Shown here: positions 5,493-35,667 of the stretch, piece after piece | Layout of the letters: each line of letters starts with the position of its first letter | How positions within the stretch are numbered: position 1 is the stretch's first letter | Origin: an uncultured bacterium | GTDB lineage: Bacteria; Bacillota_I; Bacilli_A; RF39; UBA660 | Assembly (NCBI GenBank): GCA_937863745.1 | Contig: CALMHN010000061.1 | Coordinates: 1 to 35,707 of the forward strand | DNA length: 35,707 nt | Direction of reading: 5' to 3' | Made by a program: the position numbers and the translations under genes | Notes under the pieces: model-generated | Told to the model about the DNA's origin: nothing | The model's database searches: none | The model's input: only the letters and a program-made list of their open reading frames with translations

Positions 5493-6722
5493 CTATCCAG
5501 CATATGCATCATGAGTAGATACTGCATTTAACATTACATTTATAGTACCTTGTGCCTTTTTAACCTTAGTTCGTTTGATATTAAATTGAATACCTGATAT
5601 AAAAAATGTTATTTCGCTTCCTATTTTATAGTTTATATGCTTATATTTCAATACAACTTTTCTACCTATATACCAGTGTGGAAATCTAAATGGTTGGGAA
5701 ATACGAACAGATATAGGTTTAACAGTATTCAATATTATAGATGCTATACTTTCTCTTAAAGAATATTCATTACTCTGATCTAGATATATTTTAGTATTGG
5801 GTTGTACTATCTTGTCCAAATAATTTTCAAATGAATCAACACTATCTACAAACTTCATAGAACGTATTAAACTCATTACATCTATTTCACTTTCTTTATA
5901 CAGACCAGTATCACTTTTCTTACATAGTGTTATTTTCTTTGGAATGAGTGCAGCAATACTACTAAAAGCATTTGTTAATTGAGGAAGATTTGGTAAAAAA
6001 TACTGTCCATCATCTATCCTTATTTTATCTTGTTCTTCTTGTGGTAAATCACCATACAATTCTAAAGCTTTATCTGATGTTGCTTCATTTAAGGATTTAA
6101 TATATGCTACATTATCATGCAAATTAGTATAAATGATAGGGGGAATATTGAACATCCCATATCGTTGAGATATATATGCTAAATTGATAAAGAACTTATT
6201 ATTTGGTATCCATATCTGTTCATATTTTTCAGAATTATCTAATTTGGATACATTTAATCTTAATTTTCCATGATTTGTTTTTGCCCATAAACTATTAATG
6301 ACATCTACAACTTTAACATTCTCATAAAGACCACCAACAACAGTATTAACACCAGTATATGCATCTTTAGCAACATATTCATGTCTGACATTTATTATAT
6401 CTGGTCTAGAAGATAAATCTGCTTCTCTATGTATATCAATCACAGCTTGACCAAAACTCAACCATTCACTATCTATTAAAGTTCTTTCTGTTTCACCCAT
6501 ATTCTTTTCAACAATAATAATATGAACAGTATAAGGCATAAGGAGTAAATTTCTATATCTATTATCAATTCTAAAGTTCATTTTCATACGTGGTACTAAT
6601 TTATGATTCTGCATGATAAATGCAACTTCAAGAATTTCTTCTTGCAAAACAAGAGAAGTCTTAGTAAATTTAAACTCTGCCTTTATATCAAATGCACTTT
6701 GCTTAACATCTGCATCAGGCAT
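5493..6722 (-). CDS. Hypothetical protein, structural-module context
   Basis: 409-aa ORF whose ATG lies 1 nt after the upstream stop, suggesting translational coupling. I recognise no motif. Confidence 0.6.
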   Translation of the reverse strand: MPDADVKQSAFDIKAEFKFTKTSLVLQEEILEVAFIMQNHKLVPRMKMNFRIDNRYRNLLLMPYTVHIIIVEKNMGETERTLIDSEWLSFGQAVIDIHREADLSSRPDIINVRHEYVAKDAYTGVNTVVGGLYENVKVVDVINSLWAKTNHGKLRLNVSKLDNSEKYEQIWIPNNKFFINLAYISQRYGMFNIPPIIYTNLHDNVAYIKSLNEATSDKALELYGDLPQEEQDKIRIDDGQYFLPNLPQLTNAFSSIAALIPKKITLCKKSDTGLYKESEIDVMSLIRSMKFVDSVDSFENYLDKIVQPNTKIYLDQSNEYSLRESIASIILNTVKPISVRISQPFRFPHWYIGRKVVLKYKHINYKIGSEITFFISGIQFNIKRTKVKKAQGTINVMLNAVSTHDAYAG

Positions 6723-17732: not shown

Positions 17733-19211
17733 TTAGTTGGTTATCTCAATAAGCCCTACGCCTTCATGCCTTATAAACTTAGCAGCATACCTGCTAAGGA
17801 AGGTCATGACTGGCTTCCTGCCAAGAGGGAATGGCGTAATGGTTAGTGGCCTATATGGTGCAAACACAAACACAGCGTGATCAGGATTCTCAGGCTTCAA
17901 CAATACTATCATTTTACCCTGAGGAACTACAGGAGAGCTGAGAACTTTCCACGTATCATCCAGTACACCTGCTATAGGTGAACTACCAAATGCTCCACCA
18001 CCAACAGTATTACCCTTGAAAGAATAATCAGAAGTAGTTTTCAGAATAGCAACATCAAGAGGATTGGCTACTATAGTATTGGCTACACCAATATTAGTAT
18101 CAACATAAATCTGGTTGCTTACTTCATTCAGCTGAACTACAATCTGGTTGTACCATTCTTTTCTACCAAATGCAAAATTAGCATCAGGTGTCTTGGAGAA
18201 AGTTTTTATTGCATTGGGATGGAAAATGCTTGTTTCCCTAATAAGGGCATTAATAAGTTTTCTATCAATATCCAATGCTATAACATTTCCAAACGTGTCT
18301 ACCAACTGAGCCTGGACGTCCATATCAAAATATGCTTTGACGTCCTGCTCATACTGAATCGTCCATTCAGCCTGCACTTCATGGTCAATAGCATTCATTC
18401 TAATCTTAAGATGTTTAAAACTAATTTTATTAGCATACATTTCCTCAAATCCAGAAATGCTTGCTACTATGGATATACCAGTTACTCTTTCAGCTTCTCC
18501 TGCTCTAGTATTAGATACAGTTACTGTTCCTTTGAAATAGTCTACATTACCAGATACATGATCTACAAAACCACTAGTTCCAAGTTCAACATCAAAATTA
18601 AACATACCTTCTTCATTAGGTTCAACCAATACATCTACATCAGTAGTGGTACTACCATTATCAATAGTATAAGTAACACTAACAATCTGAAAATCTCTCT
18701 GTAGATGAGCCTTAGAAGAATCTAATCCTTGGGCTGCCAGTAAATCAGTAACAGATGGAACAACAACAAGAGCAGGAGCAGTTACTCCTATTTGAGTTGC
18801 ACTAGAAACATCCCTCTGTAGATTAGGCAGATCAAACTCTTCATTACCAACTTTAGCTACAGCAATCAAAAATGGCCTTATAATTTCAGGCTGATCCATT
18901 GGCAATACAGTCAATGCTTCCCTTGCAACCAACGCAGGCCACATTTTCCTAAATACAGGAAGAATTAGCTGAGCCTGTGGTTTAAATCCATAAACAGTTT
19001 CAGCAAGTATTCCTTCCCTAACCAGACCAGACATAGTCTTGAACTCATCTTTCATATTTGGTTCAAGACCCTCTGAAAGAGCATCTACATAGTAATCAAA
19101 AAGGGCATCATCAGCCAGTATCTGTGGATAGTTTGCTACTACATCCACACCCTGCTTCTTCATAGACTTTGCAGTTTCCTGCAACAACGATTTTACAGCA
19201 CTATATTGCAT
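17733..19211 (-). CDS. Major capsid protein (T4 gp23-like)
   Basis: LILPVFRKMWPALVAREALTVLPMDQP parallels gp23 AVMGMVRRAIPNLIAFDICGVQPMNSP. AEWTIQYEQDVKAYFDMDVQAQL parallels gp23 AAYSIELAQDLRAVHGMDADAEL. C-terminal FAPYRPLT...VMTFLSRY parallels gp23 YAPYVALT...VMGFKTRY. GC content is much higher than in neighbouring genes, and the gene has a strong SD and its own terminator. Confidence 0.92.
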   Translation of the reverse strand: MQYSAVKSLLQETAKSMKKQGVDVVANYPQILADDALFDYYVDALSEGLEPNMKDEFKTMSGLVREGILAETVYGFKPQAQLILPVFRKMWPALVAREALTVLPMDQPEIIRPFLIAVAKVGNEEFDLPNLQRDVSSATQIGVTAPALVVVPSVTDLLAAQGLDSSKAHLQRDFQIVSVTYTIDNGSTTTDVDVLVEPNEEGMFNFDVELGTSGFVDHVSGNVDYFKGTVTVSNTRAGEAERVTGISIVASISGFEEMYANKISFKHLKIRMNAIDHEVQAEWTIQYEQDVKAYFDMDVQAQLVDTFGNVIALDIDRKLINALIRETSIFHPNAIKTFSKTPDANFAFGRKEWYNQIVVQLNEVSNQIYVDTNIGVANTIVANPLDVAILKTTSDYSFKGNTVGGGAFGSSPIAGVLDDTWKVLSSPVVPQGKMIVLLKPENPDHAVFVFAPYRPLTITPFPLGRKPVMTFLSRYAAKFIRHEGVGLIEITN

Positions 19212-27273: not shown

Positions 27274-28050
27274 ATGGAAATACAGGAAAGATTTTATGGA
27301 AATTTGGATAAGATACTTGTTGATGTAAAATCAGGAGATCTAGAAAAAATGCTCCGATGGATGAAAGTGTTTGGATTGACTACATTTGCTGCTATATCAG
27401 GTTTTTTAACAAGCATAATTAGTTCTTTAAAAGATATAACAAGTAAAGGATTGGATACTATAAGTGGCGTCATCCCTGTGGATCAAATACCTGAAGGAAT
27501 AGCAACATTCTTTCAAAATGCATATGCTAGTCTTATGCAGGTACTAAGTAATATAGTGTCTCATCTAACTGGTGCTGCTAAAGCAATAGCTACAAACGTA
27601 CCAGCTACTGTAACTGTTGGTGTTGTAACTATATCAACTGCTCATCTTATCCTTGGTGGTGTTGCTGCTTCTATAGTATTGCTAGCTTTATTTAAACTAT
27701 TTAATAATCTTAAAGCACAGCCATCTGAAAATACGTTTAGTGATGCTATGGATATATTTAATGAGATGCCTCTATTTGCAGAGAGTATTAGCAAACATCT
27801 ATCTGAAGAAAATGGAGAACCATCCAAGATGGGTAAAGTTATTTCTTCCATCCTTAATAAAGGTAAAGAAGTAGCAGATAAAGTTGTCGATATGCTCTCT
27901 TCTGGTGTAGATAAGTTGGAAGGTGCAGCGAAAGTACTTCTTAGTTCCAAAACAGTACGTGTCTTGCTTGGAGTATGTGTTCTGTTGATTTCTGTTGGTT
28001 TCATGTTATTATCTGGTGAAGGTGGAATTCCTGAATTATCTGCTGTCTAA
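27274..28050 (+). CDS. Multi-pass membrane protein, function unknown; one of the few plus-strand genes
   Basis: 258-aa ORF with ATG 9 nt after TAGGAGG. Hydrophobic segments are FGLTTFAAISGFLTSIISS, VTVGVVTISTAHLILGGVAASIVLLALF and VRVLLGVCVLLISVGFMLL. A perfect hairpin follows the stop. Confidence 0.7.
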   Translation: MEIQERFYGNLDKILVDVKSGDLEKMLRWMKVFGLTTFAAISGFLTSIISSLKDITSKGLDTISGVIPVDQIPEGIATFFQNAYASLMQVLSNIVSHLTGAAKAIATNVPATVTVGVVTISTAHLILGGVAASIVLLALFKLFNNLKAQPSENTFSDAMDIFNEMPLFAESISKHLSEENGEPSKMGKVISSILNKGKEVADKVVDMLSSGVDKLEGAAKVLLSSKTVRVLLGVCVLLISVGFMLLSGEGGIPELSAV

Positions 28051-29884: not shown

Positions 29885-30874
29885 TTACCAAGTTAAATTA
29901 TCCATATGATCAATATTAATTCCAAATATATCTATAATTGGTTCTAGTCTCTTATATATTGCAATATCAAGCATAGCATCTATATCTGGATAAAAAATAG
30001 AGGTATCTAAATTAACTCCTTCAGGTACTGTAATAACATCAATCTGATCGTTTTTAATTAGCAAACCCTCAACACGCATTTGCTTTAATTTCTTATCATA
30101 ATCTTTGATCTTGCTACCATCTACTTTACTTATGGTAAATGTATATCCTCTATCTCCTTCATAAAAGGTAGGACCATATATGACATTGTATATTTTCATG
30201 CCTCTTATAGTCTTTGTCAATACTTTATATTCTCTAGCACCCCATCCACCTGGTACTCCTAAAGTATAATCACCAGCCATAAGTCTGGTTTTATATTCGT
30301 CTATATATTTGTCTATCAGATTTAAAATTTGAAAAGAACTATATTCTTCTCTTAATATCTTATCTATAACATCTTGTAACATCTGTTTGGTAAATCTTGG
30401 GAAATCTGCTCTAACCACCTCCATACCCGTGATACTTAGATCGTCTATTTTCTTTCCTTCTTTGTTGATGATCCATAATGCATACTTCTTCTTTGCATCT
30501 AAGAACATAGCTCTCTTAATAACTAATTCTTCCTTAAATGTAAAGTTATATTTAGTGGCAAGCTCAGAATCACCAGCATTATGCCTTTTAAGCATTTCAG
30601 GAATGATATATGTATTAATATATTCAGAACATTTTCTAACAATCTTTAAAGTAGCTTCTGTCTTTTCATCTTCACTTATTGAATCATATTTATCACCATA
30701 TAAAGATTTGAGCACTGGTTCAATAAAGAGAAACATTGAATCAGTATTATGTACTAAAATGTCATTAGCAAAAAACATATGGTTATTATCAACTTCGATA
30801 TCATATACATACTCTGGTATATTGTTTTCAATTTTCTCAACAGATGTTATTCTTTCCTTTACTATAGACATCAT
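29885..30874 (-). CDS. Family-B DNA polymerase C-terminal fragment: split-intein C-half followed by the motif C / thumb extein
   Basis: The first 43 aa end EYVYDIEVDNNHMFFANDILVHN, matching intein blocks F/G with terminal His-Asn. They are followed by TDSMFLFIEP, the second half of PolB motif C (YGDTDS). The gene has its own GGAGG SD and ATG. Confidence 0.9.
   Translation of the reverse strand: MMSIVKERITSVEKIENNIPEYVYDIEVDNNHMFFANDILVHNTDSMFLFIEPVLKSLYGDKYDSISEDEKTEATLKIVRKCSEYINTYIIPEMLKRHNAGDSELATKYNFTFKEELVIKRAMFLDAKKKYALWIINKEGKKIDDLSITGMEVVRADFPRFTKQMLQDVIDKILREEYSSFQILNLIDKYIDEYKTRLMAGDYTLGVPGGWGAREYKVLTKTIRGMKIYNVIYGPTFYEGDRGYTFTISKVDGSKIKDYDKKLKQMRVEGLLIKNDQIDVITVPEGVNLDTSIFYPDIDAMLDIAIYKRLEPIIDIFGINIDHMDNLTW
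30746..30874 (-). mobile_element. Split intein C-fragment (Int-C, 43 aa)
   Basis: Block F is VYDIEVDNNHMFFAN and block G is ILVHN, followed by +1 Thr (codon 30743-30745). Confidence 0.85.
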
Positions 30875-30893
30875 CTAATACCTCCTCAAAATA

Positions 30894-30915
30894 TACATAT
30901 ATATTATTATAATGA
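30894..30915 (+). promoter_or_regulatory. Promoter-like 22-nt repeat, copy 1 (contains TATAAT)
   Basis: TACATATATATTATTATAATGA is identical to the copy at 31104-31125. TATAAT can be read on both strands here (plus 30908-30913, minus 30906-30911). Confidence 0.5.
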
Positions 30916-31019
30916 TATGGAGTAATCCATATCAATCATATAACATTGCCACAGCAGAACCACCAGGCTCCCTAATAATATATCACATCTGGAGATATAT
31001 ATCTCCAAATTTTTTTAAT
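30916..31019 (+). ncRNA. Candidate small RNA of about 100 nt, hypothetical
   Basis: It starts just after repeat copy 1. It has a 5' hairpin ATATGGA-GTAA-TCCATAT and a comparatively GC-rich core GCCACAGCAGAACCACCAGGCTCCC. A 3' hairpin TGGAGAT-ATAT-ATCTCCA is followed by AAATTTTTTT. No SD-led ORF is present. Confidence 0.25.
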
Positions 31020-31103
31020 TGTCTTTATGGATTAAGTGTAGCATAATATCTCTCACTTATCAAGCATATCAATATTAATTATTACTTTAATAATATAAAA
31101 ATT

Positions 31104-31125
31104 TACATATATATTATTATAATGA
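31104..31125 (+). promoter_or_regulatory. Promoter-like 22-nt repeat, copy 2, upstream of the plus-strand cassette
   Basis: It matches copy 1 exactly over 22 nt and lies 74 nt upstream of the ATG at 31199. Confidence 0.5.
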
Positions 31126-31198
31126 AAGAAGAAGTTTGTAGCTATGTGTTACGAGCTTTTTTCTTTCAAATATTTTTTACTTTTAGGGAGGTATTAGC

Positions 31199-31420
31199 AT
31201 GTTTAAAGTTGTTGTTGAGTCCTTGTTTAATGACAGGTATGGAAAAGGTAAGAGGAAAGAATTTGTTGTCTTAAGCAAAGCTATTGCTATTCAAAAAGCA
31301 ATGGGGTTTAGTAAACATGCTTGTGTAGAAGTTGTAGATGATCTCCATAAACAATGTGTTGCTTATGGTGATCCAATAATAGGATTCAAGGAGATTGAGA
31401 ATTATGAGCACAATTTGTAA
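31199..31420 (+). CDS. Small hypothetical protein, first gene of the plus-strand cassette
   Basis: 73-aa ORF with ATG 7 nt after AGGGAGG. It overlaps the start of the next gene by 17 nt. Confidence 0.6.
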   Translation: MFKVVVESLFNDRYGKGKRKEFVVLSKAIAIQKAMGFSKHACVEVVDDLHKQCVAYGDPIIGFKEIENYEHNL

Positions 31421-31739
31421 TAAGATGTATAAAGCAGTACTGCCAACTACAGTATTGCCAAAAGATGGAATTTATCAGGTAAGGACACTTGAGACCTTAC
31501 CTGATATCACTGGGGTGCCTCATTATATAGGGCATCCTGCAACGAAGGTAATTGTAGAACAGCTTGGAGCAGTTGAAGCTTCCTCCAAGCTGTTCCAAGG
31601 ATTGGATGTTGGCGAAGCTGTTGTATGTTTTGCCATCAAGCAAGGAAGAAGTACTAGAAAGGATGATGGGTTCACAACTCCTCATCAAGAAGTTAACATT
31701 GATGATCTTTCTGTAAGAGAGATCATCAGATTAGAGTAA
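31404..31739 (+). CDS. DUF1874 family protein (AcrIII-1 / STIV B116 / YddF-like); candidate cyclic-oligoadenylate ring nuclease
   Basis: YKAVLPTTVLPKDGIYQV...HYIGHPATKVIVEQLG......VGEAVVCFAIKQGRSTRKDDG...VREIIRLE follows the DUF1874 pattern seen in SIRV1 gp29 and B116. That pattern is N..SINML...(I/A)IGHDSTI.L(I/V)N.LCG...., then (E/G)D(K/E)(L/A), a hydrophobic run and QRLEEGK. I place the start at ATG 31404, 10 nt after AAGGAG. The ORF track's TTG at 31395 is less likely. GC is about 40-47% against about 25% in the flanks. Confidence 0.65.
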   Translation: MSTICNKMYKAVLPTTVLPKDGIYQVRTLETLPDITGVPHYIGHPATKVIVEQLGAVEASSKLFQGLDVGEAVVCFAIKQGRSTRKDDGFTTPHQEVNIDDLSVREIIRLE

Positions 31740-31745
31740 TAGAAA

Positions 31746-31781
31746 ATGGAAATGATCTGAGAATACTCAGGTCATTTCCAT
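31746..31781 (+). terminator. Hairpin downstream of the DUF1874 gene, terminator or attenuator
   Basis: A 16-bp stem, ATGGAAATGATCTGAG / CTCAGGTCATTTCCAT, with one mismatch and loop AATA. The U-tract is weak. Confidence 0.45.
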
Positions 31782-31814
31782 AAATACATAATTAAGAATA
31801 AGGAGATGACAATA

Positions 31815-32306
31815 ATGAAAAAATTAACAAAATTATTTGTTTTATCTTTTATTATAAGCTACTTCTGTATAAATACAGGATTAGCATATGGGAATAATCT
31901 ACATTTAGGAACAATTCCAAATGTAGATTATAAAATAGCTGAAAATAATGGTAATAATACTATCACCATCAATGAAAGTGGTACATCTAACATTGATGTA
32001 GTGTTAGATGAATATGGTGATGTTTGCTTTAATATTAATAAAATAAATCTCTATTTTACTGCAAATATATTTGCTGTGTTAGATATCTTAACACAGCTTG
32101 ATGTAATTGAGCCAGGCTCATATAGAAATATGATTTTGGATGACAATGGAGTGACATTTGAAGTTGGTGTCAACTCTGTGAAAAAGGATAACGTCATGAT
32201 GTGCATTAGTAATCAAGATATATCACTAATTCTAGACATTAAAACACCTAAACAGTTTCAATGTCTAGAAGATATAGAAAACAATATTCGCTCCTTATTT
32301 AAATGA
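31815..32306 (+). CDS. Secreted protein of unknown function (signal peptide)
   Basis: I place the start at ATG 31815, 9 nt after AAGGAG. The N-terminus MKKLTKLFVLSFIISYFCINTGLAYG-NN is a classic signal peptide. Confidence 0.65.
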   Translation: MKKLTKLFVLSFIISYFCINTGLAYGNNLHLGTIPNVDYKIAENNGNNTITINESGTSNIDVVLDEYGDVCFNINKINLYFTANIFAVLDILTQLDVIEPGSYRNMILDDNGVTFEVGVNSVKKDNVMMCISNQDISLILDIKTPKQFQCLEDIENNIRSLFK

Positions 32307-32313
32307 AATAGAT

Positions 32314-32356
32314 AAAGATATCAAGCGTGATTAAATGAATCACGCTTGATATCTTT
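32314..32356. terminator. Bidirectional terminator between the cassette and the polymerase N-fragment
   Basis: A perfect 19-bp stem, AAAGATATCAAGCGTGATT / AATCACGCTTGATATCTTT, with loop AAATG and T-rich flanks on both strands. Confidence 0.8.
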
Positions 32357-32382
32357 TATTTAAGTAGTATATTTCACTATAT

Positions 32383-35300
32383 TTATTTTTGGTTTGTCAA
32401 TACAAGATCAGAATCCAATATCTCATTTGGTTTAACTTGCATTAATTGTCCGTCTCTCTCAACCATAATAGAATGGTCTTCAGTTACAATTAATTCTTTT
32501 CCACTTTCAGTTCTGATTCTATACATTGGTTTATTAACTTTATGTCGTGACATATTATTTATTGGTCTATATACAGCATCAGAATCTTCATATGTAAGTA
32601 CTTTGTCATTTGCAAAGATATATTCTCTTCCTATATAATTCATAAGTTTGTATTCCTTATGCCTTTCAAATAGATCTTTGATTGGTATACCTTCTGGATA
32701 TTGTTCAGTATTTATTTTTGTATTTTCATCAACAGAATCACCATACACTATATTCTCCAGTACATCAGCATCAAGAAATTTTGTATCAAATTCATATGGT
32801 TCAATATCCATCTTATGAGCATCTCTCATTTTATTTAAATACTGATGAATATGATATGCACCCATTGTTACTATTTCTCTTCCAGATGCAGTTATAGTCT
32901 CTGCAGATGGAAAATGAAACAGTCGAAAATATTGATTAGCAATTCCACCATATAGTGAGTTAGTAAGAACCTTATAAGTAAATTGCCAGTTATTATATCT
33001 TTCTGCTAACATATGATTATTATTCTCAATAGCTTTAAACATTTCATTTTTATATCGTTTGCGTTCTCTAATAAGCATATCTATAATTTCATAATAAACT
33101 GATAATTTTGTATTATGATTGACATACATTGTACCCATTATTGTTATTATTAAATTGTATTTAGTTATAGTCTCATGTAATTTCTGTACTGTTATCTGTT
33201 TAACATTTAAATTCTTATCTTCATAATTAATAAGTCTATCTGGTTGAGATAATAATTCATCTCTATTATAGATATACTCACGAGCTATATATTCATCTAC
33301 CTTACCAACATAGGTGTCAATAGAAATATTATATCGTGCTATGATATATGGATATAGAGAAGAAAGATCCAAATCAGCCAACCAGTTATATAATCCTTTT
33401 AATGGTTTTCTTACAAAAGCACCTTTGAGCTTTTCTGTTTTCTGATCATTATCTTTATCATATTCATATTTTTTACATATAACTGTCTTATTTTGTTTAT
33501 CTAATGTTGTAAATAGAATACCATCTATAATTGGAAGTGTGCTGAATGATTCCTCCCAACTGATGTTGGTAGCTCTTATAATGTTAAATTGAATATCAAT
33601 ATATTTAAGTTTATTGTCCAACTTTCTAACAAGATGAACATCATTAATATTATAAGCAATGAATCTATTGGGATCTGATAACCACATATCATCAAATCGT
33701 TTGTCAAGAGACAGTTTCTTTATACCAAGTTCAAATTCAGCAATAAAACCAAGTGTATAAGATTCTCTTTTACTAAATGTTCTTTTCTTATACAAGGTTA
33801 AATAATCACATTCCACGACATATGGAATGTATGGTTTATTAGTTCTCTCATTAATAAAAATACGACCATATTTGTTTTTACATTCTATTCCAAGATATTG
33901 TGATCTATTAATAATAAATGGCCAGTCAAATGCTGATGAGTTCCATCCTGTTACAAGATCAGGATCTATTTCATCAAATTTTTGAATAAAACCATTCAAC
34001 ATCTTTCTTTCATCATTATATACAAATATTTCAATATTACACTCATCTTTATATTCTAGATGTTTTATTATTTTTTGTTTATCAATGTTCAAATTGAATG
34101 AGTTGTTTATAAATGTATAATAGGTATCAGTATAGTTATCATACAGAGTTATCAACGATATAGCATATCTCTTTGCAGCTGCCATCATGTCATCGAGAAG
34201 CATCATATTGCCATTGAGAAACAATTCTATATCTATAGCAGCAATTCTTAATGGTTGTTCAGTCTCTGTATAAGTGTTTCTAAACTGAATATTCTTATAT
34301 ACTGATAGATTCATATCTCCAAAGACATTAAACCCTTTACTCTTCAAATCATTTATTACATTTATTCTATCTTTAAACGGTACAACTTTGAGCTTTAATT
34401 TATCCTTGTATTCAACAGTATTGTTTGATTTACCATAATACAAAGCATATTTATCATCTGTGGTATGAATTATTTTATCTTGTCCTCTTCTTAATATATA
34501 ATTAACTTCAGATTTAAGATAATTGTATACTGTATTGACTAACATTATATTATCTGATGTATTACTTGTGGTATCAGTATCACTCTTATTGTCATTAACT
34601 GTTTCATATTTAGTATTGTTAGGAATAGGAAATAACTTCCTCACATCATCAGTAGTATAAGACATATGTGGTTGAACATTATCTTTTGATTCTACAGCAT
34701 ATCTTATTTGTTTTAACCTATTAGCAAAAATATCGTATCTGGACATATTTCTGCATATTGCTGATGGATGAATACATGGCAATAATAGATGATCATTATA
34801 TTTATATATCTTTGTCATAGCATCAGTTATCTTATCTGTTATACCAAATCTACTACATGGATAATTACCAAGTGGAACTATAACAGCATCAGCAGGTAAT
34901 TTAGAAATGATTAACTCTAGATTGTCAAAACAATATGCTATCTCATCTTTCATTGGTGGGTTTGATGGTTGATGAAAACATAAACAAACATTCATAACAC
35001 CCCAATGAATATCATTAAAACCAGTATTATCTAATGTTTGTCTTAATAACTGTCCTGCACGTCCAACAAAGGGTTTTCCTTCTTTAATTTCATTGACAGC
35101 TGGTGCTTCTCCAACAAATAATACTTTAACTTGAGATATATCATTTGTTGTAAAATCAAAAATAGTTCTTTGTACATCATCTTTATTAGATTTGCATAAT
35201 GCACATTGTGTAATGAGTCTCTTTTCTATCTCATCTTTCAATGGAGAAATAGTATCTATAGTATCTTCAACATTATTGGAAGAAACAATAGATTCTTGAT

Positions 35301-35667
35301 TAAAACTCTCAGCATTATTTTTTATCATAAGATATGTTTTGATATCTTTTTCTGATAAATAGGGATACTTTAGTTTTAATTGATTTATTTCATCAGTAGT
35401 TTTCTTTGATTTGTTTGACATAAATTGTATTTGTTTGGATCTGTTAATATATCTGTGAAATTCAGATAATTTATCAAAAGGTACATTTCGTGCAAGTATA
35501 GGATTAGTATTAATCAACTGATCTAAGTATATACAAGATAGCACATCATCTTCAGATATATTTAATATTGTGGATACATTAAGTTGCTTGACTGTATCAT
35601 CCAATGAATCAGTCTTATGTTGTATATAATAAATATATTTGGTTAGTGGTGATAACTCTTTTGCCAT
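32383..35667 (-). CDS. Family-B DNA polymerase N-terminal fragment: UDG-like domain, 3'-5' exonuclease, palm motifs A and B, first half of motif C, then split-intein N-half
   Basis: Motifs present are Exo I IAAIDIELF, Exo II GWNSSAFDWPFI, Exo III YNINDVHLV, motif A DLDLSSLYPYII and motif B KVLTNSLYGG. After ...ENIVYGD the sequence continues directly into intein sequence rather than TDS. Confidence 0.92.
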   Translation of the reverse strand: MAKELSPLTKYIYYIQHKTDSLDDTVKQLNVSTILNISEDDVLSCIYLDQLINTNPILARNVPFDKLSEFHRYINRSKQIQFMSNKSKKTTDEINQLKLKYPYLSEKDIKTYLMIKNNAESFNQESIVSSNNVEDTIDTISPLKDEIEKRLITQCALCKSNKDDVQRTIFDFTTNDISQVKVLFVGEAPAVNEIKEGKPFVGRAGQLLRQTLDNTGFNDIHWGVMNVCLCFHQPSNPPMKDEIAYCFDNLELIISKLPADAVIVPLGNYPCSRFGITDKITDAMTKIYKYNDHLLLPCIHPSAICRNMSRYDIFANRLKQIRYAVESKDNVQPHMSYTTDDVRKLFPIPNNTKYETVNDNKSDTDTTSNTSDNIMLVNTVYNYLKSEVNYILRRGQDKIIHTTDDKYALYYGKSNNTVEYKDKLKLKVVPFKDRINVINDLKSKGFNVFGDMNLSVYKNIQFRNTYTETEQPLRIAAIDIELFLNGNMMLLDDMMAAAKRYAISLITLYDNYTDTYYTFINNSFNLNIDKQKIIKHLEYKDECNIEIFVYNDERKMLNGFIQKFDEIDPDLVTGWNSSAFDWPFIINRSQYLGIECKNKYGRIFINERTNKPYIPYVVECDYLTLYKKRTFSKRESYTLGFIAEFELGIKKLSLDKRFDDMWLSDPNRFIAYNINDVHLVRKLDNKLKYIDIQFNIIRATNISWEESFSTLPIIDGILFTTLDKQNKTVICKKYEYDKDNDQKTEKLKGAFVRKPLKGLYNWLADLDLSSLYPYIIARYNISIDTYVGKVDEYIAREYIYNRDELLSQPDRLINYEDKNLNVKQITVQKLHETITKYNLIITIMGTMYVNHNTKLSVYYEIIDMLIRERKRYKNEMFKAIENNNHMLAERYNNWQFTYKVLTNSLYGGIANQYFRLFHFPSAETITASGREIVTMGAYHIHQYLNKMRDAHKMDIEPYEFDTKFLDADVLENIVYGDSVDENTKINTEQYPEGIPIKDLFERHKEYKLMNYIGREYIFANDKVLTYEDSDAVYRPINNMSRHKVNKPMYRIRTESGKELIVTEDHSIMVERDGQLMQVKPNEILDSDLVLTNQK
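32386..32736 (-). mobile_element. Split intein N-fragment (Int-N, 117 aa)
   Basis: It begins with Ser (codon 32734-32736) in SVDENTKI, matching block A. GKELIVTEDHSIMV matches block B (TxxH). The ORF then stops, and there is no endonuclease domain. Confidence 0.85.
34690..35235 (-). other. Family-4 uracil-DNA-glycosylase-like domain fused to the polymerase N-terminus
   Basis: Motif A is GEAPAVNEIKEGKPFVGRAGQLL and motif B is CIHPSAICRN. Four Cys sit at Fe-S-cluster-like positions (QCALCKS and NVCLCFHQPSNPPMKDEIAYC). Confidence 0.75.

Follow-up and report, generated by a model that had tools for sequence, protein, structure and literature searches.

What does a phage keep in the gap of a DNA polymerase gene that an intein divides in two, when did that content arrive, and does the break itself have any part in attracting it? 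The question is raised by a 35,707-nucleotide (nt) stretch of DNA (the window; contig CALMHN010000061.1 of GenBank assembly GCA_937863745.1, deposited under an uncultured bacterium of the RF39 lineage UBA660), which is tailed-phage sequence of 29.5% guanine plus cytosine (GC) whose minus strand holds nearly all genes. Its family-B DNA polymerase (PolB) is encoded by two minus-strand genes, PolB-N and PolB-C, and the 1,508 bp between them are filled by a plus-strand unit consisting of a repeat present twice, three open reading frames (ORF1 to ORF3) and a closing hairpin. The interpretation that we favour, and hold with moderate confidence, is that this old split-intein gap acts as a variable accessory island with ORF2, a putative cyclic tetra-adenylate (cA4) ring nuclease, as its functional core. 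The finding combines three kinds of system that are already known: the fractured gene, the AcrIII-1 family member and the phage accessory island.

A polymerase gene split within an intein

The genes of the locus and the intein parts are as follows (aa, amino acids; SD, Shine-Dalgarno sequence).

29885–30874, minus strand: PolB-C, 329 aa; intein C-part, then extein starting TDSMF...
30746–30874, minus strand: intein C-part, PolB-C aa 1–43 (43 aa), ending ...ILVHN
31199–31420, plus strand: ORF1, 73 aa; SD GGGAGG; 17-nt overlap with the start of ORF2
31404–31739, plus strand: ORF2, 111 aa; SD AAGGAG; divergent protein predicted to have the DUF1874/AcrIII-1/Crn2 fold
31815–32306, plus strand: ORF3, 163 aa from ATG 31815 (166 aa from 31806); SD AAGGAG
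32386–32736, minus strand: intein N-part, PolB-N aa 978–1094 (117 aa); first residue Ser, TEDH (block B) inside
32383–35667, minus strand: PolB-N, 1094 aa; uracil-DNA glycosylase (UDG), exonuclease and polymerase domain up to ...VYGD, then intein N-part

Both halves are recognisable as parts of one intein-bearing polymerase. PolB-N matched the Pfam models UDG (8.6e-20), DNA_pol_B_exo1 (4.9e-19), DNA_pol_B (1.8e-24) and Intein_splicing (9.9e-8), and PolB-C matched DNA_pol_B (1.7e-7) and Intein_splicing (2.1e-5), with DNA polymerase as its PHROG match; the Intein_splicing scores of 32.4 bits (PolB-N) and 24.8 bits (PolB-C) both lie below the Pfam gathering cut-off of 35.8 bits. The intein signatures are in place and comprise the Ser1 nucleophile, TEDH (the TxxH of block B) and VHN/T (C-terminal HN and +1 nucleophile; a slash marks the junction). 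The junctions read ...VYGD/SVDEN... in PolB-N and ...ILVHN/TDSMF... in PolB-C, and since VYGD precedes the intein N-part and TDSMF follows the C-part, the break falls inside PolB motif C (YGDTDS). The split has the proportions of a natural split intein, which would be expected to rejoin the PolB halves. Relatives of the window down to 33% PolB-C identity have the same YGD/TDS break, which argues that the fracture is old.

Relatives also encode a T4-type portal, and one of them is a 112-kb contig from IMG/VR. The UDG superfamily domain (window 34700–35200, PolB-N aa 177–315) is an N-terminal fusion to the polymerase that relatives keep.

A first-pass annotation, drawn from the letters of the window alone, had described the gap as a plus-strand unit of three ORFs with SDs, a repeat and a perfect 19-bp hairpin; all of these are present at positions 30,875–32,382. 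Its description of the unit as the only plus-strand operon of this part of the genome did not hold, as another plus-strand gene (27274–28050) lies 3 kb away.

ORF2 as a divergent DUF1874 protein

The assignment of ORF2 was obtained through family profiles and a structural model. Homologues in a large protein database numbered 52, two of which carry PF08960 (STIV_B116-like, DUF1874), and an exhaustive profile search yielded only 119 clusters at 50% identity, indicating a small, divergent subfamily. A first family profile (A1) had FeoB as its sole match (E 0.4), by chance, and a broader profile was needed. The resulting 37-member profile matched PDB entries 2j6b (AFV3-109, E 1.3e-4) and, weakly, 2x4i (SIRV1 gp29, E 0.15), the latter alignment setting the GH..T motif of the family in register on H47/T50 of SIRV1 gp29. 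PF08960 itself was matched directly by 7 of the 37 members (best 4.6e-19), and hhalign comparison of the ORF2 family with a bona fide PF08960 protein of a related phage gave a probability of 94% (E 1e-7), with GHPxT and R85 aligned.

The AlphaFold2 (AF2) model of ORF2, built on the family alignment, had a predicted local distance difference test (pLDDT) value of 86. Its top 16 Foldseek matches in PDB were all DUF1874 structures, with template modelling (TM) scores of 0.46–0.58 and Foldseek probabilities of 0.72–1.00 down to the fifteenth and 0.41 for the last; the next matches, to unrelated folds, had a probability of 0.04. The structures matched include Csx1-Crn2 (8y7f/8y7g), AFV3-109 (2j6b), SIRV1 gp29 (2x4i/6scf) and STIV B116 (2j85), and ORF2 shares 13–19% identity with solved members of the family. 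Matches in BFVD included a protein of phage THSA-485A (probability 0.99), a rudivirus and STIV; the duf1874 gene of THSA-485A, possibly the one matched in BFVD, abolished cA4-based immunity (10.1101/778746).

The catalytic His and several of the cA4-contacting residues have counterparts in ORF2. H44 of ORF2, which aligns with the catalytic H47, is the sole invariant column among the 37 family members; H47 acts as the general acid, with R85 and T50 as contacts to cA4 (Athukoralage et al., 10.1101/778746). When the list of cA4 contacts (T50, R85, R66, N8, S11, N13 and Q81) was checked by alignment, T47 corresponded to T50, R85 to the Arg of the CRLPEGK/SQRLEEGK loop (the lid) and K62 to R66. Model and profiles together place ORF2 as a divergent member of the DUF1874/AcrIII-1/Crn2 fold family in which the catalytic His, the Thr and the 'lock' Arg are conserved, and make it a putative cA4 ring nuclease.

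Two further observations concern how the gene is maintained. Between the window and its sister lineage (L010/L031; relatives are numbered with the prefix L) ORF2 is 85% identical with a ratio of nonsynonymous to synonymous divergence (dN/dS) of 0.11 and a synonymous divergence (dS) of 0.69, making it the best-conserved segment of the region and pointing to strong purifying selection. Unrelated phages (Moorella, Parageobacillus and 18 IMG/VR contigs) also carry a member of the family on its own, a distribution that looks like that of accessory genes. The suggestion in the first-pass annotation that the cassette is anti-defence cargo is a reasonable one, since both fold and family membership ally ORF2 with the AcrIII-1 ring nucleases of viruses. 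As we picture it, an ORF2 dimer would bind cA4 and cleave it with His44 as general acid, and loss of cA4 would turn off type III CRISPR-Cas effectors, or other cA4-dependent defences, in the host.

Composition and age of the cassette

A quantitative analysis of GC and codon usage did find the deviation that had been estimated by eye. ORF2 has the highest GC (40.5%) and the highest GC at third codon positions (GC3, 31%) of 31 genes (means 30.0 ± 3.8% and 19 ± 4.5%), lies within the top 1.2% of 336-bp windows by GC and has a synonymous codon-usage z-score of −3.9, compared with −2.35 for ORF3 and −1.9 for ORF1. The first-pass annotation had contrasted a GC-rich cassette with flanks of about 25% GC; the flanking polymerase DNA measures 28–30%, and the contrast stands for ORF2, the only markedly GC-rich gene of the window cassette, and is overstated for the cassette as a whole, ORF3 being native at 27.5%. 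Only the major head gene (17733–19211) deviates more than ORF2 in codon usage (z −5.1); a strong codon deviation is expected for a highly expressed gene such as this one. In the sister lineage, the whole cassette has 42–48% GC and 39–48% GC3, compared with 28–31% and 18–27% in its flanks. The composition, foreign in the window and far more so in the sister lineage, points to an origin of the cassette in a GC-richer pool, and the unequal amelioration of the two lineages suggests at least one later re-acquisition or exchange.

The arrival of the cassette had been proposed to be a recent horizontal acquisition, a proposal that the relatives contradict. Near-identical strains (L001–L009, L020 and L021) have the same three genes as the window, and the sister lineage (PolB-C 79%, PolB-N 75% and DnaB 87% identical; flank dS 1.1–2.4) has homologues of ORF1, ORF2 and ORF3 in the same order and place. 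As all three genes are shared at that flank divergence, the cassette predates the split of the window and L010 lineages and its acquisition was not recent. Over ~9 kb compared between the window and L010, all breaks in nucleotide collinearity lie within the gap.

Gap content across the clade

More distant relatives hold other genes in the same place. Percentages give PolB-C identity to the window.

L022/23 (60%): 6.6-kb gap with 11 genes; SLT, ThyX and QueT of native composition
L028 (53%): at least four opposite-strand genes; PolB-C neighbour of 55% GC
L024 (48%): DUF6557 and ThyX, same strand
L101 (47%): six genes
L102 (33%): two genes, one homing-endonuclease-like

Gap size therefore ranges by lineage from 2 to 11 genes, with seven gap states among the relatives in addition to strain-level insertions, and the gap is a variable region both across the clade and among near-identical strains. 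Comparison of the gaps, as the first-pass annotation had advised, revealed different cargo in different lineages. In L022/23 the gap includes an opposite-strand block converging on PolB-N, one gene of which is a canonical PF08960 gene (84.5 bits, ~22% identical to ORF2), so that two lineages hold DUF1874 genes of different subfamilies, ~22% identical to each other, in their gaps.

Strand and composition tend to go together in these gaps. Opposite-strand genes exceed the backbone in GC3 in L023 (31–48% vs 13–19%) and for one gene in L028 (62% vs 11–12%), and same-strand genes are mostly native (ThyX, SLT, QueT), with the exception of one same-strand gene of L101 (GC3 46%). The L028 gene (2007–2822, minus strand) is a 271-aa orphan directly upstream of PolB-C with 55.5% GC and 62% GC3 in a genome of ~11% GC3, has no Pfam or PHROG match and is the most extreme foreign gene among all gaps. 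ThyX lies inside or adjoining the polymerase gap in four lineages, and in L027 (2894–4480) the ThyX next to PolB-C holds an intein of its own (Thy1 - Intein_splicing - Thy1, 528 aa).

The window gap has no recognisable homing endonuclease in searches of ORF1–3 against Pfam, PHROGs and NCBIfam, in agreement with what had been noted at first sight. The endonuclease-like gene of L102 encodes 261 aa with a PHROG 3339 match (E 1.3e-6), a label that rests on this single match, as the gene has none in Pfam or PDB; the other gap gene of L102 encodes 113 aa. Its presence there agrees with the classical model of fractured genes, and the ancestral gap may have held a homing endonuclease, as in Dassa et al. 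2009 (PMC2677866) and as L102 still suggests. In the same relative (L102 6110–8990) the polymerase is cut further, a 232-aa piece corresponding to the palm region and the intein N-part. For the idea that the intein break is a landing site or hotspot, the variation of the gap among relatives is favourable, but nothing shows that the break itself attracts DNA.

Insertions among close strains

Strains that are 96–97% identical to the window (L015–L019) carry two insertions in or beside the cassette. A 1.9-kb segment (41% GC) interrupts ORF2 after codon 31; it encodes a full NhaC Na+/H+ antiporter (TIGR00931, 486 bits) preceded by ~300 nt of GC-rich upstream sequence. An IscB gene (NCBIfam, 363 bits) with its HEARO/omega RNA (154 bits) follows directly after the cassette terminator. 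Their coordinates are given below.

L015 3579–5497, equivalent to window 31494–31508: 1.9-kb insertion in ORF2, replacing 15 bp inside a 12-bp perfect hairpin (31473–31506)
L015 6353–7975: IscB element after the cassette terminator
L015 1–192: IscB element after DnaB; its HEARO copy is 83% identical to that of the first element

The NhaC insertion has no target duplication. It was considered as a self-splicing intron or a riboswitch-controlled segment and rejected as either, there being no Rfam match at E up to 0.5 and the NhaC gene being bona fide. The junction between IscB and the terminator is reproduced in four assemblies, with the hairpin at 32314–32356 marking the insertion boundary in the variant strains, and L021 retains at the same spot (about 6460–6510) a ~50-nt remnant of the two ends of the element followed by an intact PolB-N stop. 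With both IscB copies at convergent junctions and NhaC at a hairpin within ORF2, the targets of insertion look like hairpins and terminators and not like the intein.

Other rearrangements were seen in the same group. L020 contains another IscB-like gene, located upstream of PolB-N, and bases 1–56 of the window recur (98% identical) at L020 14869–14924 within a ~195-nt insertion, located at the position equivalent to window 24014, that may be a small repeat or mobile sequence. In L015 (8012–13728) the sequence after the cassette lacks PolB-N and continues into glycosyltransferase and epimerase genes. In L013 (2009–5218) gene order breaks inside the cassette, PolB-N is likewise missing and the sequence continues into a DUF4815 structural gene; what had appeared to be an identical ORF2 in a different context in L013 proved to be this same locus, broken within the third gene. 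The departures in L013 and L015 may reflect genuine rearrangement, or chimeric assembly at repeats.

Control elements, ORF1 and ORF3

The non-coding features of the gap are listed here.

30888–30915, plus strand: promoter-like 28-nt repeat, copy 1; TATAAT at 30908–30913
30916–31017, plus strand: candidate small transcript of ~100 nt; 5' hairpin, conserved core, terminator-like hairpin at 30990–31007 followed by a T7 run
31098–31125, plus strand: promoter-like 28-nt repeat, copy 2, ~75 nt upstream of ORF1
31746–31781, plus strand: 16-bp hairpin, 94% complementary, between ORF2 and ORF3; no T-run
32314–32356, either strand: perfect 19-bp hairpin with 5-nt loop, between the convergent cassette and PolB-N

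The two repeat copies are identical at 27 of 28 bases, and their 22-nt core occurs twice where 0.03 occurrences would be expected by chance. The L010 lineage keeps both copies, each with the same two substitutions, and an exact 19-mer of the motif occurs three times in the 112-kb relative, twice in the gap and once ahead of several small genes on its own strand, a ThyX-like gene among them. The motif probably serves as a rightward promoter, an orientation taken from the position of this third copy; it has a perfect TATAAT and no −35 box at 16–18 nt spacing. From copy 1 we infer transcription of the candidate RNA of ~100 nt, and from copy 2 that of ORF1-ORF2-ORF3 as a self-contained unit, which would end at the hairpin shared with the convergent PolB-N. 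This hairpin (32314–32356) is probably a bidirectional terminator, and a terminator scan found five terminator-like sites where 0.5 were expected.

PolB-C needs a promoter of its own, for which the best sigma-70-like match of the region (TTGATA-18-TATAAT, minus strand, 30935 to 30906) is a candidate that overlaps copy 1 and faces PolB-C. A 21-nt imperfect palindrome (30901–30946), centred just past copy 1, spans the plus-strand −10 and the minus-strand −35 box and could be an operator for the divergent promoters of PolB-C and the cassette.

The core of the candidate small RNA is CAGCAGAACCACCAGG in the parts list and CAGCAGARCCAYCAGG in the form quoted as conserved between the ~75%-identical lineages. 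The RNA has a fold z-score of −2.5 and is conserved between the window and L010 lineages, with the 5' stem retained by different sequence; it has no convincing Rfam match, and a metagenome scan for the core recovered the same two lineages only. A role as a mimic of CRISPR repeats was rejected, as the core gave only single scattered matches and no arrays in 596 Gb of genomes. The hairpin between ORF2 and ORF3, a possible attenuator or site of RNA processing, is absent from the L010 lineage, where the spacing of the two genes is 4 nt.

ORF1 and ORF3 have no family and no match among deposited phages (Pfam, PHROGs, NCBIfam and phage records), and no homologue of either stands beside ORF2-family genes at 27 other loci. 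ORF1 is a fast-evolving, clade-restricted orphan (53% identical in the sister lineage). For ORF3, ATG 31815, as called in relatives, is the more likely start compared with 31806. Its homologues form only four clusters, all in close relatives, and its counterpart in the sister lineage, of 183 aa, has 31% identity across the whole alignment and 39% in a local match of 90 residues. The AF2 model of ORF3 (pLDDT 70.7) has an N-terminal hydrophobic helix, a beta-rich domain and a C-terminal helix; the N-terminus resembles a signal peptide or membrane anchor, and ORF3 is probably exported or membrane-anchored. The fold matches of this model were generic and PH-like (query-normalised TM ≤0.40), and kinship of ORF1 and ORF3 with the 58-aa and 169-aa genes of the L022/23 gap was rejected at hhalign probabilities ≤1%. 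Both may be fast-evolving partners of ORF2.

Alternative explanations

Several observations weigh against ORF2 as an active anti-CRISPR nuclease and against the gap as a special site. Direct searches with ORF2 returned nothing over threshold in Pfam (none at E up to 0.1), NCBIfam or PDB, and its membership is deduced through intermediate profiles and from fold scores that are modest (Foldseek E ~1e-3 to 1e-1, TM ~0.55). Codon 14 (31443–31445) encodes Pro (CCA for TCA) at a position that is Ser in at least 90% of the family. Family members have an N-terminal motif rich in S/T with Ser14 nearly invariant, and P14 is the form of the window sub-lineage (at least 10 assemblies), the close strains L035 and L015 having Ser. 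Position 14 would match the cA4-contacting N8 of SIRV1 gp29, a residue that no alignment covers, and P14 could alter the activity of ORF2. The existence of a strain population with ORF2 disrupted implies that the gene is dispensable in some settings. A member of the family, SIRV2 gp37, is expressed too late, had no anti-CRISPR (Acr) effect in the native virus and has another role; whether DUF1874 members act as anti-CRISPRs in vivo depends on when they are expressed, and for SIRV2 the role is disputed (10.1101/2023.01.10.523387). As to the site, the hotspot claim rests on ~7 lineages, with other intergenic sites forming no formal comparison set, the second IscB copy lies beside DnaB, outside the gap and also at a convergent gene junction, and three of the four opposite-strand gap genes of L028 are native in GC3.

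These points bear on three rival explanations. The one to which we give most weight, while still thinking it unlikely, holds that the position is incidental: the cassette would be a vertically inherited, moron-like operon of the kind that any junction of conserved genes collects, and the GC of ORF2 would follow from protein constraint. The sister lineage does have the same three genes, GC1 and GC2 of ORF2 (GC at first and second codon positions) are high as well, the major head gene deviates more and yet is not foreign, IscB also stands next to DnaB outside the gap, and the same-strand gap genes (ThyX, SLT, QueT) are native; yet GC3, a measure little affected by protein constraint, is highest of all genes in ORF2, many opposite-strand gap genes of relatives (L010, L023, L028) are far above backbone GC3, the gaps of two lineages hold different DUF1874 subfamilies, and every collinearity break between the window and L010 falls in the gap. 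A little less probable to our minds is that the cassette derives from, or took the place of, the mobile element responsible for the fracture, its cargo reusing the control elements of the endonuclease and being spread by homing-type repair. The break between the 117-aa and 43-aa parts is at what we take to be the usual endonuclease insertion point of inteins, the most distant lineage has the homing-endonuclease-like gap gene, the RNA-guided nuclease element IscB is present, whole or as a remnant, in the same gap of close strains, and the fractured-gene model requires imported control elements (PMC2677866). On the other side, the window gap contains no endonuclease or remnant of one, the L102 label is a single PHROG match, the promoter motif has a further copy in another part of the genome, which makes it the phage's own and not imported, and mobility of the cargo by homing is pure inference.

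We are slightly more sceptical again of a third explanation, in which ORF2 has the DUF1874 fold without a ring-nuclease role against CRISPR in vivo and the cassette is a general host-takeover operon, ORF2 being a DNA-binding protein, an inhibitor of host proteins (as proposed for STIV B116 and SIRV2 gp37) or a cA4 nuclease expressed too late. SIRV2 gp37, without Acr activity in native infection, inhibited a host lysine methyltransferase (10.1101/2023.01.10.523387), and P14 at a nearly invariant Ser and the disruption of ORF2 in one strain population also fit this explanation. It is opposed by the invariance of the catalytic His alone and the retention of the T50 and R85 equivalents, which point to selection on the active site, by the purifying selection on ORF2 (dN/dS 0.11, 85% identity), and by the location of ORF2 behind a promoter motif shared with a small-gene run resembling an early region. 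Least probable, we consider, is the most far-reaching version of our own proposal, in which the intein gap would be a protected 'safe harbour' where foreign counter-defence genes were swapped repeatedly (hence two DUF1874 subfamilies), cargo would pass between co-infecting phages through nuclease-driven repair at the site (by a homing endonuclease in one lineage, by IscB in another) and the conserved ~100-nt RNA under the same promoter would belong to the counter-defence unit. The reading that we prefer remains that of an old split-intein gap serving as a variable accessory island around a putative cA4 ring nuclease, with a history in which a homing endonuclease would have fractured PolB and cargo then replaced the endonuclease gene.

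Relation to known systems

Fractured genes were described with a free-standing homing endonuclease gene between the split-intein halves, gp41-7 being one locus without endonuclease (Dassa et al. 2009, PMC2677866). The window locus is alike in that an essential replication gene is split, each ORF carries one intein half, control elements are separate and genes intervene; it is unlike in that the gap holds three non-endonuclease genes on the opposite strand, with L102 keeping an endonuclease-like gene. The split gp43 of some T4-related phages is likewise encoded by two genes with 2–3 kb of inserted DNA between them, once with a GIY-YIG endonuclease gene (Petrov and Karam, cited in PMC2677866). 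The PolB of the window phage too comes from two genes parted by inserted DNA, in a group whose relatives have a T4-type portal. Split gp43 polymerases work as two subunits and are not known to use an intein, whereas the window halves would be rejoined by a split intein.

ORF2 resembles AcrIII-1 and Crn2 (SIRV1 gp29, the THSA-485A protein, B. subtilis YddF and Marinitoga Csx1-Crn2) in its size of ~110 aa, its fold, the GH..T motif with catalytic His, the conserved lid-loop Arg and its occurrence as a lone accessory phage gene; it differs in belonging to a subfamily mostly missed by the PF08960 model and in its Pro at a nearly invariant Ser. Phage accessory or anti-defence islands share with the gap conserved flanks, lineage-specific small orphans, foreign composition and a member of an anti-defence family; here the flanks are two halves of one gene, and a single gene has an anti-defence assignment. 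IscB elements of the IS200/IS605 family with HEARO RNA are represented by the full element after the cassette terminator in close strains and by the remnant in L021; the window has no such element, and with a second copy outside the gap their target appears to be the hairpin at a convergent junction.

Apart from DUF1874/AcrIII-1, no enzymatic family is known to inhibit type III CRISPR. An active ORF2 would add to this family a divergent branch that Pfam does not see, and one that is also present in low-GC tailed phages, so far recovered from metagenome assemblies only. The locus also bears on the fate of a gene after fracture: the gap would be no lasting slot for a homing endonuclease and would become a site of turnover for foreign genes with half of an essential gene on either side, halves that have to be passed on together. 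Across the clade, the PolB YGD/TDS site offers a collection of natural split inteins, and opposite-strand, GC-deviant orphans between split-intein halves may be a searchable signature for new counter-defence genes.

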